DNA of 64,000 nucleotides from a virus: positions 1 through 64,000 of IMG/VR virus record IMGVR_UViG_3300025645_000053. One strand, 5' to 3'. The position numbers were made by a program, and so were the translations under genes. Each line of letters opens with the position of its first letter. Within the stretch, counting starts at the first letter, position 1. Shown here piece by piece: positions 44,658 through 53,474 of this stretch. The notes below the pieces were generated by a model, which had not been told where the DNA came from, did not search any database, and saw nothing but the letters and a program-made list of their open reading frames with translations.

Positions 44658-46034
44658 ATGGCTTACAATTTTAGACCAAAGAATGTTAATGAGATTCTTT
44701 CAAAAAATAAAAAGAATGGCTTCGTTGCTGCGAAAATATACGAAGCCATTCTCAAAAAATACGATGCGATAATCGTGCTCGACCCAAGTTCGACGTTTAA
44801 TTTAATAAAAATACCTCGAGGAGTTGGCGACAGCACTACAATAACCGCAGTTAAACAATTCCTAAAAACTGAAAAAATTGACATTGGTGACTTAAAACTA
44901 GAATTTGGCGATGGCTCAGGTCGTGCTACTGGTACTGATGCAATCACAACAGCTAAACAAGAAAACGTAACCCGTCTTTATTGTCAAACATATATGAATA
45001 CTAACGGTAAATTTCCGTCTAACGCCGAAACTAAAGAAATATACTCTGATGTAAATGATGAATGGTTTCGCACATTTGAAGCTCAAGCAATATCAATTTG
45101 TAAATGGCTTGGCTCGAATGGTTATATCTTCTCAAGAGATGAAGGTATTATGCCTTATCTTGAAAATGTTGCAAAGAAATGCGGAGTCACTACTAAAGAT
45201 TCTTGGAATCCTGCTGATATATATGCGGTTAAGAAAAACTCACAAGATACAATTCTTAAGGATTTTGCTGCAATAGGTGAACGCAAAATGGATAAAGCTG
45301 CAAAGCTTGATGCGCTTAATTCTTATATGCGTTCAAAAATAGCGACTAAAGAACTAGTCGGCATTTCTCTTAAGAAGCTATTAAAAGGTAAGGTTAAAAC
45401 AGTTGAACTCACCAATGCTAAAAGGAAAGAACCGCTTAGTGATATTGAGATACTTCCATCAAGTATCAAACTCAACTTAGATATTAGTGCTAAGAACGAA
45501 TTTGTCACAGGTGATTTCTCAATGAAAATTAAAGCAGAAGGTAAAATTGTTGCGGTGCAAGTCCGTGCTTTTGCTGGCGGACCACGTGAATCTACTCAAA
45601 TGGATATGGGTGGTGTAGGTGCTGCAGCAAAGCTTGGTAAAGTTTCAGCTAACGAAGCAATAGAGCCATTTATTAGAAAACACGGACTCCAAAGACGTAT
45701 GGGTACGCATTTACCAAAAGTCGGCAAATGGACTGAGAAGGATATAGTTAAATATATTGCCGAACAAAAAAGTTTAAAGTCAGTTAAAATTGGCGGAGTA
45801 TCAATCGACTGGGGTAAGAGTGATTGGGGTACAGTTTTGCGTGACGCAATAGAATATGAAAAAGACATATCAAGAACAGCTTCACAGTTAAGCGCTAAAT
45901 TGCAATGCTTCCAATGGGTTACGATATTCGACACGATTCAACGTAAAGGAAAGCTTCAAGAGTTTTTATCAGTGCTTTACTTTGGTGCAAAGAAACAATA
46001 CGATACGGCTGGACCGTTTTTAAAGGTAGCATAA
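44658..46034 (+). CDS. Putative PD-(D/E)xK-fold nuclease-like protein
   Basis: TAKQE, DSWNPADIY, LVGISLKK. Confidence 0.55.
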   Translation: MAYNFRPKNVNEILSKNKKNGFVAAKIYEAILKKYDAIIVLDPSSTFNLIKIPRGVGDSTTITAVKQFLKTEKIDIGDLKLEFGDGSGRATGTDAITTAKQENVTRLYCQTYMNTNGKFPSNAETKEIYSDVNDEWFRTFEAQAISICKWLGSNGYIFSRDEGIMPYLENVAKKCGVTTKDSWNPADIYAVKKNSQDTILKDFAAIGERKMDKAAKLDALNSYMRSKIATKELVGISLKKLLKGKVKTVELTNAKRKEPLSDIEILPSSIKLNLDISAKNEFVTGDFSMKIKAEGKIVAVQVRAFAGGPRESTQMDMGGVGAAAKLGKVSANEAIEPFIRKHGLQRRMGTHLPKVGKWTEKDIVKYIAEQKSLKSVKIGGVSIDWGKSDWGTVLRDAIEYEKDISRTASQLSAKLQCFQWVTIFDTIQRKGKLQEFLSVLYFGAKKQYDTAGPFLKVA

Positions 46035-46930
46035 TGAAATCATTTAAGCGATATTTGACCGAGATAAAAGCCACTCAAAGGGTCGGGATTCAACATCTTG
46101 ACAAATTAACACCCACCAAGTTTCTCCAATTAATGAAAGTCTTTAAAGATGATTTCAATGGTGTGTTGCCTAGTAAGCAATTGCAGGTAACAGAGAAACT
46201 TGATGGTTCTTCAATACGTTTAGGAATGAATGGCAATAACGAATTCTTTATCGAGTCATCATATTCAGGTCCAGTGTATAAAGCCGGTGACTATACTGAT
46301 TATGTAATTTCAAGAGGGTATGAAGCTAATGAAGTTTCAAAGAACTTTGAGAATTTACTTGATGTATTGAAAAAGAATTCTAAGCTGCAAGCAGTATTAA
46401 AGAAACATAACAATGGCGACGGCATCAAAATTATCGGTGAAATGTTTTATAATCCAATGGGTAAAGAAGTATCGAAAGATAAGATACGATTCATCTATAT
46501 TGATTATGATAAGTCTAAGTTAGCTGAATTGTTAACGGTCGTGCCTTTTAGCATCGAAGGCGATGTTGATAAGAAAGCGTTAATTGATGATTTAGTAAAG
46601 ATTTCAAATAGTAAGATTAGATTTGACAAAATAAAGTCAATGAATATTCCTGACATCGATTTGAACTTTGGTGTTGGTTCAATTGCCGAACTATTAAAGA
46701 ATTATGATAAAGCACTTGCAATATTACAATCAAGAAAGCATGCTGACCGTGAAGAGAAGGCTATCATAAAAGGTTTAATTGAAAAGGCACAAAGCGATGT
46801 CAGAACAACCATTTTACAATATATAAACAAAGGTAAGTATGGCGAAGAGTTCGAGGGAATCGTACTTGATATTCTTGGCAGTAAGTTAAAAGTAACTAGC
46901 GACGTATTCAGAAAAAGGTTTAAGAAATGA
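46034..46930 (+). CDS. ATP-dependent ligase-superfamily nucleotidyltransferase with capsid-targeting N-terminus
   Basis: MKSFKRYLTE; TEKLDGS (I), IIGE (III), FEGIVL (IV), LKV (V); no OB domain. Confidence 0.75.
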   Translation: MKSFKRYLTEIKATQRVGIQHLDKLTPTKFLQLMKVFKDDFNGVLPSKQLQVTEKLDGSSIRLGMNGNNEFFIESSYSGPVYKAGDYTDYVISRGYEANEVSKNFENLLDVLKKNSKLQAVLKKHNNGDGIKIIGEMFYNPMGKEVSKDKIRFIYIDYDKSKLAELLTVVPFSIEGDVDKKALIDDLVKISNSKIRFDKIKSMNIPDIDLNFGVGSIAELLKNYDKALAILQSRKHADREEKAIIKGLIEKAQSDVRTTILQYINKGKYGEEFEGIVLDILGSKLKVTSDVFRKRFKK

Positions 46931-47820
46931 TATCATTTAAAAAGTTTATAGCAGAAGGCGGCAATGCCGTTAAGGGTGTTACACGTATCAATCAAGAAAA
47001 CGTTGCTGGCACAATGAATAACATTTATAAAGAGATACTGCCAAAGTTAAAGTTAACGCAGAAGCAAACTGCAAGTTTAGGCTCAACTGGTAAAAAGAAA
47101 GCAGGTGGCTCAAGCGGTGATGTTGATTTAGCGTTAGACCTTGGAGCTATCGTTAAAAGCGATAAAGCAGTTAACACTCTTGATGATGTCTTTGATAAGA
47201 TAGTTAATGTAGCAAAATCATCTGGGTATGACTTCCGTGATATGAGGTCTATGGGATTAGTTTCTATATCATTCCCTATTAAAAACGACGACGGTAAACA
47301 AGAAGGAGAAACTGTTCAACTAGACTTGATGCCAACTGAGAATTTAGACTATTCTTCGTGGGCATATTATTCTCCAGCTGAATGGGAAAGCCAATGGAAA
47401 GGTTTATACCGAAACGAATTATTATATGCAATTGCTAGATTCATGGATTACAAGACCGCAGAGAAAGCAATGGATAAAGAAGGTAAGGAAGTCGATGCTT
47501 CATGGGAACGTAATTTCTTTGACTTATCGAAAGGTTTGCTTCGCGGTAAACAATCAAGGATGGGTAAAAAGGGATTAGTCAAGAGTTCTAAAACTTTAGA
47601 GAAGTGGCTATTAACAATGGATAAGGAAGAAATTGTTACTATGTTGTTCGGCCCTAAGTATAAGTCAACCATGATACTTACTTGGGAAGACGCGTTTAAA
47701 GCTGTCACTGACCCTCGGTTTGTTTACAAAAAGTCCGTTAAAAACATACTGCAAATGACTAAAGACGGCATAATTAAAAAAGGATATACCGTTCCACCAG
47801 AGTTAGATGCTATAGTATAA
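46927..47820 (+). CDS. Pol-beta-superfamily nucleotidyltransferase with capsid-targeting N-terminus
   Basis: MISFKKFIAE; LGSTG...GDVDL, VQLDLM. Confidence 0.8.
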   Translation: MISFKKFIAEGGNAVKGVTRINQENVAGTMNNIYKEILPKLKLTQKQTASLGSTGKKKAGGSSGDVDLALDLGAIVKSDKAVNTLDDVFDKIVNVAKSSGYDFRDMRSMGLVSISFPIKNDDGKQEGETVQLDLMPTENLDYSSWAYYSPAEWESQWKGLYRNELLYAIARFMDYKTAEKAMDKEGKEVDASWERNFFDLSKGLLRGKQSRMGKKGLVKSSKTLEKWLLTMDKEEIVTMLFGPKYKSTMILTWEDAFKAVTDPRFVYKKSVKNILQMTKDGIIKKGYTVPPELDAIV

Positions 47821-52651: not shown

Positions 52652-52652
52652 T

Positions 52653-53474
52653 ATGAAGTCTTTCTCACAGTTTATAAATGAAGATAAGAATCATGCGGTG
52701 GTTGTGTGGGGTCGTTTGAACCCACCGACTATCGGTCACTTAAAACTTCTAGATAAAGGAGCCGCAGCAGCAAAAGGTTCGTCATATTTCATATACGTTT
52801 CGCAGTCAACCGATGCCAAAAAGAATCCATTAGAATATGGACAAAAGATAAAATGGATTCGTAAAATGTTTCCAACTCATGCGCGTTCAGTTGTCATGGA
52901 TAAATCAGTTAAAACTATATTTGATGTATTGACAAAAGTATATGATAGCGGTTTCACGACGTTAACTTTGATAGCAGGATCGGACCGTGTTACCGAATAT
53001 GAAACTATAGCAAACAAGTATAATGGTGTTAAAGCAAGACATGGTTTTTATAACTTCGAAGGTGGAGTTAAGGTTGTGTCAGCAGGTGAACGTGATCCTG
53101 ATGCCGAAGGTGCAACTGGTATGTCTGCTTCTAAAATGCGAGCAGCAGTTGTCGCTAATGATTATCAAATCTTTCAAAAAGGTCTACCTAAAAACTTCTC
53201 TGATAGTACTCAATTGTTTAACGATATGCGTAAAGCGATGGGTCTTAAAGAATCGACATCTTTCCGCGAGCATCTTCAATTGAAATCAGTATCAGAAGTC
53301 CGCGAATTATTCGTTAAAGGCGAGATATTTAATAAAGGCGATACTGTAGTAATAAACGAATCAAATGAAGTTTGTACAGTATCAGTTAAAGGAACCAATT
53401 ATGTTATTGTTAAGAAAGGCGACGGATCAAAGACGAGGTGCTGGCTAACAGACATTTCGCCAATAGGAGAATAA
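52653..53474 (+). CDS. HIGH-family nucleotidyltransferase (cytidylyltransferase/NMNAT-like) with capsid-targeting N-terminus
   Basis: MKSFSQFINE; GRLNPPTIGH, GSDR, MSASKMR. Confidence 0.88.
   Translation: MKSFSQFINEDKNHAVVVWGRLNPPTIGHLKLLDKGAAAAKGSSYFIYVSQSTDAKKNPLEYGQKIKWIRKMFPTHARSVVMDKSVKTIFDVLTKVYDSGFTTLTLIAGSDRVTEYETIANKYNGVKARHGFYNFEGGVKVVSAGERDPDAEGATGMSASKMRAAVVANDYQIFQKGLPKNFSDSTQLFNDMRKAMGLKESTSFREHLQLKSVSEVRELFVKGEIFNKGDTVVINESNEVCTVSVKGTNYVIVKKGDGSKTRCWLTDISPIGE

Follow-up and report, generated by a model that had tools for sequence, protein, structure and literature searches.

Five adjacent genes of an uncultured T4-like phage carry candidate capsid-targeting leaders and may encode injected, enzyme-rich cargo

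Why should five consecutive genes of an uncultured phage, whose mature products are unrelated, all open with look-alikes of the short peptide by which T4 loads proteins into its head? The genes, here called P1 to P5, occupy positions 46034-53474 of the plus strand in IMG/VR record IMGVR_UViG_3300025645_000053, a 77.9-kb contig that CheckV estimates to be 43% complete and of which the first 64 kb form the window, that is, the whole stretch of 64,000 nucleotides analysed here. The source is an uncultured marine-type T4-like myophage. We put at roughly three in four (0.75) the probability that the five genes encode cargo marked by a capsid-targeting sequence (CTS), packed in the head and injected with the DNA. 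By analogy, the locus is best explained as doing for this phage what alt and the internal-protein genes do for T4, though with a cargo made up mostly of enzymes; packaging, cleavage, injection and all of the biochemical activities discussed below are what we infer from the sequence.

The evidence that carries this reading lies first of all in the leaders. The T4 CTS is MKTYQEFIAE (PMC8442874), in which mutational work assigns targeting to residues 4 and 7 and processing to residues 8 and 10 (PMC9026906). The leaders here, with a slash at the predicted cut, are MKSFKRYLTE/IKATQ in P1, MISFKKFIAE/GGNAV in P2, MKTFKETLVE/KKVTI in P3, MRNKTYKELHE/NLLYT in P4 and MKSFSQFINE/DKNHA in P5, and those of P1, P2 and P5 satisfy all four positions (aromatic at 4 and 7, as in T4, Ile or Leu at 8 and Glu at 10). 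An earlier note on this DNA had read the leaders as variants of the T4 CTS, in agreement with the mutationally defined determinants. Its five open reading frames (ORFs), with their coordinates, plus strand and N-termini, are likewise all reproduced by translation; as to the start positions, the longest P3 ORF opens at 47875 and the longest P4 ORF at a GTG at 48437, and it takes the ATGs at 47890 and 48455 to yield the leaders.

The clustering of these leaders is not due to chance. Of the 1,676 candidate starts that the entire contig offers on its two strands, a strict leader pattern, ^M.{0,3}[KRI][STN][FY].{2,4}[LIVF].E, matches 6, namely the five cluster genes and one gene at 69504, and five of the seven occurrences of the core motif [STKN]F..[FYT][IL].E in the six frames of the contig fall within the cluster. 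As a positive control, the strict pattern applied to 100 kb of T4 (1,828 candidate starts) matches ipII and ipIII only; ipI, which lies outside these matches, begins MKTFKEF but has a propeptide of 19 residues. Over 30 nucleotides the five leaders are 47-80% identical, with differences at synonymous sites, and are thus conserved as peptides and not as a DNA repeat; a recent DNA-level repeat as the origin of the common leaders was rejected on the same synonymous variation. The gene at 69504 (contig positions 69504-70130, or L088:5504-6130, outside the window; L numbers denote the sequence regions compared) encodes 208 residues starting MKSFKQFKEE, without a match to any Pfam or PHROG family. 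It has a probable counterpart, starting MKFKTYLNE/GFVNL, in C48C1 (Kyanoviridae), the closest GenBank relative for the cargo-cluster genes, and may add to the tagged cargo at a distance from the main cluster. Megablast of the 7.4-kb cargo region against GenBank phages gave no match.

Second, the phage has the machinery on which such leaders would act. The window encodes a gp21-type prohead protease, a gp22-type scaffolding protein and a gp23-type major head protein (Table 1), which makes T4-style head assembly a fair premise for this T4-like phage. The protease is the enzyme expected to cleave after the Glu of [L/I]-x-E, the scaffold would by analogy be the core into which CTS cargo is built, and the gp23-type protein, as we read its sequence, likely carries a gp21 site of its own (...MLSE/AAPS). 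In T4 gp23 (L089, 4945-6510) the stretch ...FGSFLTE/AEIGG precedes the known maturation site, and its FGSFLTE resembles both the CTS core (aromatic, x, x, aromatic or Leu, Leu, x, Glu) and an internal site of P4 described below. A small ORF at window positions 401-613, just 5' of the gp21 gene and placed as T4 genes 67/68 are, reads MQMKTYKDLKKLFTEE...; with its CTS-like start it is a candidate prohead-core protein, and it has no PHROG match.

In the mechanism that we propose, the genes would be expressed late as two sub-operons, P1 and P2 following an untagged gene, g0, in the first, and P3, P4 and P5 forming the second. At their N-termini the tagged products would bear a propeptide some 10 residues long, in which position 4 and usually position 7 is aromatic, position 8 is Leu or Ile and position 10 is Glu. 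This propeptide would dock the cargo into the gp22 scaffolding core of the prohead, and the phage's own gp21-type protease would cleave after the leader Glu. Once matured, the proteins would stay beside the DNA inside the head and pass into the cell along with it, so that they could act ahead of any phage gene expression. The cargo set would comprise a nick-sealing-ligase-like enzyme (P1), a minimal family-X-like polymerase or nucleotidyltransferase (P2), a small basic protein (P3), a giant H-Y-E ADP-ribosyltransferase that is Alt-like in the sense of analogous, not homologous (P4), and an NMNAT/PPAT-like nucleotidyltransferase (P5).

Third, and most telling, the leaders recur in relatives. 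Across 80 IMG/VR loci with P2 homologues, leader-type N-termini stand on almost all homologues of P1, P2 and P5, and their style co-varies by lineage: P1 and P2 of L008 and L035, and P5 of L008, share the form MKF......L(L/M/F)E, which is what co-evolution with one docking partner predicts. In L008 (IMGVR_UViG_3300025871_000001, 164 kb) at least eight neighbouring genes at 9929-18248 start MKFxxxxxxLLE, PolX-like, ligase-like and cytidyltransferase homologues among them, and in C48C1 a run of tagged genes surrounds the cytidyltransferase gene. Three further loci (L085, L082 and L064) were seen to hold 9-14 tagged starts within 20 kb. In four distant relatives (L050, L054, L078 and L081) the PolX-like gene lies directly upstream of the gp21 gene, as does the ligase-like gene in L050 and L054, and gp23 also lies downstream of the PolX-like gene in L050, L054 and L078, though not in L081; there the PolX-like gene adjoins the head morphogenesis module.

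The residues around the predicted cuts are also conserved. The mature N-terminus GGNA is invariant in the P2 family and preceded by Glu in at least 90% of members, with leaders that vary in length and, in some members, two LxE sites; the P1 family keeps the junction LxE/(I/V)xAT.RVGIQH. In AlphaFold2 models, residues 1-10 of P2 are disordered, exactly the 10-residue leader, and residues 1-17 of P1, that is, the leader and seven further residues. Among 126 full-length representatives of the P4 family, 116 carry xE/N.[LIF][YFW] within the first 60 residues, after propeptides of 4-45 residues (10 being commonest), many of which are CTS look-alikes such as MKNFSEYLQE/NSLY. Homologues of P5 start MKKFSAFLKE in P-SSM3, MAMRSFLTFLTE in ACG-2014f and IKNFSQYLLEE in C48C1, and the C48C1 homologue of P3 starts MLSFKQFVSE.

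Finally, a homologue of one of the five has been detected in a virion preparation. According to two papers, NMNAT-like or cytidyltransferase proteins occur in CsCl-purified virions of four cyanomyophages, S-CREM2, S-SCSM1 (there as ORF91), S-CBWM1 and S-SZBM1, and their authors suggest that these proteins ride in the virion and speculate on NAD+ (PMC10665884, PMC9602691). One of them, gp154 of S-CREM2, was detected there by mass spectrometry (MS) through 3 unique peptides at 11.2% coverage, with no N-terminus reported (PMC10665884). This protein (OR473000) is a P5 homologue (29.5% identity over 295 aligned positions, E 8e-38) and starts MKNFSSFLTE/A. In S-CREM2 (L091, 4609-9236) the genes for the MS-detected virion proteins gp154, gp155, gp156 and gp160 lie grouped directly behind that of the late sigma factor. 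A clear leader of T4 type is seen on gp154 alone, which leaves room for loading signals of other kinds.

What, then, would be delivered? The earlier note had assigned four of the products to unrelated nucleotide-transfer folds. For P1, a KxDG ligase-like fold was borne out: it scores 31.4 bits against Pfam RNA_ligase (PF09414, cut-off 27), K55, D57, G58 and E136 are invariant among 13 aligned homologues, as are F71-F72 and S75, and E74, K150 and I151 are kept in at least 90% of them (motifs III-V were assigned by eye). Its model (pLDDT 84.8) has as top Foldseek matches T4 Rnl2, the Naegleria nick-sealing RNA ligase and TbREL1, followed by DNA ligases, all weak (best E 4e-4, the top three to 1e-3, TM-scores 0.26-0.37, root-mean-square deviation (rmsd) 8-18 A), and a Rnl2-like KxDG ligase domain holds as a superfamily-level assignment. 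The KWDG proteins of C48C1 and P-SSM3 have the KxDG motif in common with the P1 family by eye; homology between them is not claimed, profile comparison having given E 0.0017 (N-terminal and weak) or no match.

P2, for which the note had proposed a Pol-beta nucleotidyltransferase, matches no Pfam or other sequence family model; the proposal stands on its invariant motif and structure match, and can be sharpened. Searches found 267 homologues, and in 49 aligned ones G52, S53, D65, D67 and D133 are invariant, the hG[GS]...DxD motif and third carboxylate. The model (pLDDT 94.6) matches TdT, Thermus PolX, African swine fever virus (ASFV) PolX and Pol beta/lambda at moderate Z of 9.5-10.1 over model residues ~8-255, palm and thumb, whereas TUTases and CD-NTases reach Z of at most 8.5 over the palm only. 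Against ASFV PolX, 164 of 176 residues align (Z 10.1, rmsd 3.2 A, palm and thumb only), and the match starts at the palm, as in ASFV Pol X, with no 8-kDa dRP-lyase or fingers domains in the model. Lacking the canonical N-terminal domains of Pol beta, P2 is thus filed as a PolX-like minimal enzyme, no orthologue of Pol beta. When the sequences of P1, P2 and P5 were searched against the PDB, nothing usable was returned.

P3 has a very basic C-terminal half, no enzyme domain and homologues in 15 related loci; among the five it would be the closest analogue of a classical internal protein. P5 is the "cytidyltransferase" or NMNAT-like protein of cyanomyophages, matched by 548 phage records, mostly cyanomyophages. 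It has a small C-terminal domain, belongs to phrog_395 (E 1.5e-65), scores 22.3 bits against Pfam CTP_transf_like (cut-off 21), and carries PPTIGH (residues 24-29) and MSASKMR, which read PPT(I/T)GH and MSASK(M/L/Q)R in cyanophage homologues. The HIGH/NMNAT-like label of the earlier note stands for P5 in so far as it places the protein in the TxGH/SxSxxR nucleotidyltransferase superfamily; as NMNAT itself the label is unproven, the NadR-, NadD- or NadM-type equivalog models TIGR01526 (12.7 bits, cut-off 341) and TIGR00482 (13.2 bits, cut-off 112) falling far below their cut-offs and the PPAT model TIGR01510 scoring at the same level (13.3 bits; E ~0.06 each).

P4 is laid out as a short N-terminal propeptide, a conserved N-domain (residues ~12-220), a variable middle and an H-Y-E ADP-ribosyltransferase domain. 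H1168 (FHGTG), Y1203 (GDGVY) and E1262 (SPEW) are invariant among five diverged homologues, and a profile of these five recovers from the PDB only PARP catalytic domains, weakly (E 0.05-0.5), aligning the His and Tyr motifs to PARP1 and placing the Glu by position only. These two results agree with the PARP fold that had been proposed. Pfam PARP scores 25.7 bits on the C-terminal 398 residues, about one bit short of its cut-off of 26.7, and P4 is at best a divergent H-Y-E (PARP-type) ADP-ribosyltransferase. Its own sequence gave one chance-level match in the PDB; its first 1,000 residues gave no Pfam match, and residues 12-1000 no usable Atlas match. For the N-terminal part, a word-indexed search found 3 relatives and a full library scan 154 clusters that share only the first ~220 residues, of proteins mostly 1,040-1,565 residues long. 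The His and Tyr motifs occur in at least 100 of the 126 family representatives under a looser pattern, and a stricter Glu pattern in 60. Near its C-terminus P4 has a second, internal CTS-like site, SFSNFITE/A, followed by a piece of 87 residues (52388-52648); the site is conserved in all five aligned homologues, those of Aeh1 and Marzo included, and is found in 54 of the 126 representatives at a median of ~90 residues from the end, often with Met before it. It may be the actual targeting element or the trace of a fusion with a downstream tagged gene, and by analogy with T4 Alt the protein would probably be trimmed at both ends.

How far do the five belong together? The earlier note took them for one injected system, in which an NMNAT-like enzyme would supply NAD+ to the ADP-ribosyltransferase and the ligase and nucleotidyltransferase would repair RNA or make decoy nucleotides against host defences. 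All five are tagged and lie in two adjacent putative late sub-operons, and NAD+ reconstitution pathways are known in phages; in Aeh1 and Marzo, moreover, a P4 homologue lies elsewhere, within ~6 kb of nadV, an ADP-ribosylglycohydrolase gene and a NadR-like gene, a neighbourhood that hints at a link of the ADP-ribosyltransferase with NAD metabolism, not with P5. The survey of related loci speaks against such integration. Where P2 is at least 40% identical and enough flank is present, P1 is adjacent to P2 in 21 of 45 loci, P5 lies within 10 kb of P2 in 25 of 38, and P3 occurs in 14 of 38; the ligase-like, PolX-like and NMNAT-like genes are thus found side by side in no more than some half to two thirds of the close relatives, and in more distant loci P2 is mostly alone. 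P4 is found in none of all 80 P2 loci, many of which have P1 and P5, and the five are therefore not one conserved system. The remaining points are that P5 resembles NMNAT, PPAT and NadD models equally weakly, that P2 is closest to family X polymerases and not to CD-NTases or CCA-adding enzymes, and that NadV (PF04095) was not found on the contig, weak evidence given that only 43% of the genome is present. An NMNAT assignment that reaches only to the superfamily makes NAD+ supply coupled to ADP-ribosylation a conjecture, and we consider the integrated system improbable. The five are best seen as independently exchangeable cargo with a common loading route, not as an obligate pathway.

Within this exchangeable cargo, P1 and P2 alone form a sub-module whose chemistries fit together, as the filling of gaps and the sealing of nicks, and as a recurrent gene pair they look, by analogy, like a gap-fill-and-seal module. 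One could picture the whole as a tag-loaded kit of repair and takeover enzymes, in which injected PolX-like polymerase and ligase mend the incoming DNA before expression (for example, ultraviolet or oxidative lesions from sunlit water, or nicks made by host nucleases) and an ADP-ribosyltransferase trimmed at both ends reprogrammes the host. We offer this tentatively and think it rather unlikely.

The common N-terminus could also have nothing to do with head loading and instead be a translation-initiation or messenger RNA feature, a site bound by some common chaperone or partner, or a signal for degradation, the enzymes acting late in the cytoplasm. The leaders are indeed AT-rich and begin Met-Lys or Met-Ile, generally favourable to translation, the genes sit among replication and nucleotide-metabolism genes and not in the head module, and abundant late proteins can contaminate virion preparations. 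Conservation at the amino-acid level with synonymous variation argues the other way, and a conserved Glu directly before the conserved mature N-terminus, combined with leader lengths of 4 to 45 residues, fits a protease site and not an mRNA element. Furthermore, the motif recurs inside P4, where no role in initiation is possible, applied to T4 the strict pattern selects none but proven internal proteins, and the genes adjoin gp21 and gp23 in some relatives; we thus hold this explanation to be distinctly improbable. That the products are loaded but act in the prohead, as scaffold-core components that are degraded, like T4 gp67, gp68 and gp22, which are loaded and then degraded by gp21 (PMC5694885), or as a ligase-like and PolX-like pair sealing and filling nicks and gaps in the DNA present in the head, is very improbable for well-folded enzymes with candidate sites only at their termini and strongly conserved active-site residues, in a filled head where ATP, dNTPs and NAD+ are not expected, and given that T4 internal proteins and Alt are ejected.

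Several observations weigh against tagged, injected cargo itself. First, two of the leaders depart from the T4 pattern: P3 has Thr in place of the aromatic residue at position 7, and that of P4 is shifted by one residue from the register of the other four. Some P4 homologues also have propeptides of only 4-7 residues, below full CTS length, so targeting of P4 may rest on another element, possibly the internal site. Second, a mature P4 of about 1,300 residues would need to pass unfolded through the tail. Third, the virion data concern a P5 homologue in a cyanophage, and the authors of the virion proteomes warn that abundant late proteins might co-purify with virions. The KxDG protein of P-SSM3 that adjoins its cytidyltransferase is without such a leader. 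Finally, the late-promoter motif TATAAATA is not enriched across the window (14 found against 9.8 expected).

Copies of that motif, of T4 type, nevertheless stand in the gaps before both groups of genes (Table 1), and 9 of its 12 plus-strand copies in the window are intergenic, including those before the gp22 gene and before the gene after gp23. In both g0-P1-P2 and P3-P4-P5 the stop codon of one gene overlaps or adjoins the start codon of the next. Taken together, the intergenic motifs and the codon arrangement suggest the two late sub-operons. On this layout g0 would open the cargo operon and be transcribed together with P1 and P2; in 7 related loci a phrog_1462 gene is found upstream of that for the ligase-like protein. 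The g0 protein carries the pattern WNPADIY...GISLKK, and its nearest named Atlas clusters are HpaII/HaeIII restriction endonucleases (scores 0.83-0.84, a lead only); a restriction-endonuclease-like fold is possible on this lead, and a nuclease beside polymerase-like and ligase-like genes would fit a DNA-processing trio.

Table 1. Positions, in the window, of the features discussed
Feature	Position	Strand	Details
gp21-type prohead protease (Peptidase_S77)	696..1337	+	PF03420 E 4e-42, exceeds curated cut-off
gp22-type head scaffolding protein	1474..2454	+	phrog_237 E 2e-69
gp23-type major head protein	2475..3800	+	phrog_138 E 3e-151
T4-type late-promoter motif TATAAATA	44618..44625	+	intergenic gap before first putative sub-operon (gene at 44658)
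g0, untagged protein, 458 aa, phrog_1462	44658..46034	+	phrog_1462 E 4e-62
P1, CTS-tagged ligase-like covalent nucleotidyltransferase, 298 aa	46034..46930	+	leader 46034-46063; motif I Lys55 at 46196-46198
P2, CTS-tagged Pol-beta-superfamily nucleotidyltransferase, 297 aa	46927..47820	+	leader 46927-46956
second T4-type late-promoter motif TATAAATA	47845..47852	+	intergenic gap before P3
P3, CTS-tagged small protein, 191 aa	47890..48465	+	leader 47890-47919; phrog_23027 E 1e-17
P4, putative ADP-ribosyltransferase, 1,398 aa	48455..52651	+	propeptide 48455-48487, predicted cut after E11
P4 putative catalytic triad	H1168 at 51956, Y1203 at 52061, E1262 at 52238	+	H-Y-E motifs
P4 internal CTS-like site	52364..52387	+	residues 1304-1311
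P5, CTS-tagged TxGH/SxSxxR nucleotidyltransferase, 273 aa	52653..53474	+	leader 52653-52682; T26-I-G-H29 at 52728-52739

Elsewhere in the window are genes for a UvsX-like recombinase, a DnaB-like helicase, DHFR, thymidylate synthase, a DNA ligase and a partial DNA polymerase. Directly before the late-promoter motif of the cargo locus, at 44182-44604, lies a pentapeptide-repeat protein of 140 residues (Pfam Pentapeptide E 6e-18), which could be an anti-restriction or anti-defence candidate since such proteins can mimic DNA. At 53438-54110 are two adjoining paralogous proteins of 109 residues that both combine a coiled coil with a transmembrane helix at the C-terminus. One of the two weakly matches the PHROG "hemolysin" phrog_937; they resemble XhlA-type lysis-associated proteins, and a homologue is present in C48C1. 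Downstream of the cluster, at 56475-59987, the gene for the large subunit of ribonucleotide reductase is broken in two by a gene for a free-standing GIY-YIG homing endonuclease (58187-58906).

How do the five compare with known systems? According to the reviews PMC9026906 and PMC3012670, the CTS of T4 IPI, IPII and IPIII goes back to Mullaney and Black (1996). Like those proteins, the ones here have a leader of about 10 residues with an aromatic residue at 4 and usually 7, Leu or Ile at 8 and Glu at 10, are encoded by presumably late genes in a genome that also has a gp21-type protease and a gp22 scaffold, and share only the leader among otherwise unrelated mature proteins. The T4 proteins, on the other hand, are small and basic and are not known to act as enzymes; of the five here, four are predicted enzymes, 273-1,398 residues long, and the leaders differ in length and style between lineages. 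T4 Alt is a packaged and injected ADP-ribosyltransferase that gp21 cuts at ITE-6 and LTE-619, as found by MS, with loss of 6 N-terminal and 63 C-terminal residues (PMC5694885); the cleavage position was confirmed in the T4 sequence. P4 is likewise a large ADP-ribosyltransferase with [L/I]-x-E sites at both ends, LHE-11 and ITE-1311, but is twice as long, and the site near its C-terminus resembles a complete CTS. Alt is usually placed in the R-S-E class, in contrast to the H-Y-E triad (PARP/diphtheria-toxin type) of P4. No search run showed sequence similarity between the two, and P4 thus looks like a functional analogue of Alt with another catalytic class.

Among cyanomyophage virion proteins, S-CREM2 gp154 and P5 are homologous and both start with a leader; in the available text of the virion papers (PMC10665884, PMC9602691) no targeting leader or gp21 processing is mentioned. 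Polyvalent proteins (Iyer, Burroughs, Anand, de Souza and Aravind, 2017, PMC5512222) are also effector enzymes, ADP-ribosyltransferases among them, delivered with invading DNA, and P4 resembles them in being giant and multi-part, with a conserved N-terminal module and a C-terminal effector; most of the cargo here, however, comes as separate genes with short tags of their own, where many polyvalent domains are fused in one polypeptide. ASFV Pol X and ligase, a minimal base-excision repair pair, are matched by P2, which is PolX-like, and its pairing with a ligase-like gene, but identity to Pol X is ~15%, P2 adds beta-strand and C-terminal helical parts, and P1 is nearer to RNA ligases (Rnl2 type) than to DNA ligases. 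As for priority, the earlier note knew of no description of these proteins as one injected system. That T4-like phages can load varied proteins by means of the CTS has been published as a general idea (PMC9026906, PMC3012670), and so have virion NMNAT-like proteins of cyanophages; a full-text literature search found no paper tying the CTS to marine or cyanophage cargo, and in the text of Sullivan et al. 2010 (PMC3037559) no virion-cargo terms were found.

What is new here is therefore the classes of cargo for a known mechanism, the mechanism itself being known from T4. Should the leaders function as they do in T4, the injected proteins would be predictable from sequence and far more enzyme-rich than the T4 paradigm, and the recurrent NMNAT-like "cytidyltransferases" in purified cyanophage virions would be explained. 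The conserved internal tag of P4 bears on why T4 Alt is processed at both termini, and the natural diversity of tags is on offer for loading foreign proteins into T4-type capsids. The locus points to testable functions in the first minute of infection, namely the filling and sealing of DNA gaps, ADP-ribosylation and the chemistry of nucleotide cofactors; and were the kit of repair and takeover enzymes to prove true, the injected proteome of thousands of uncultured T4-like phages would become readable from their genomes.

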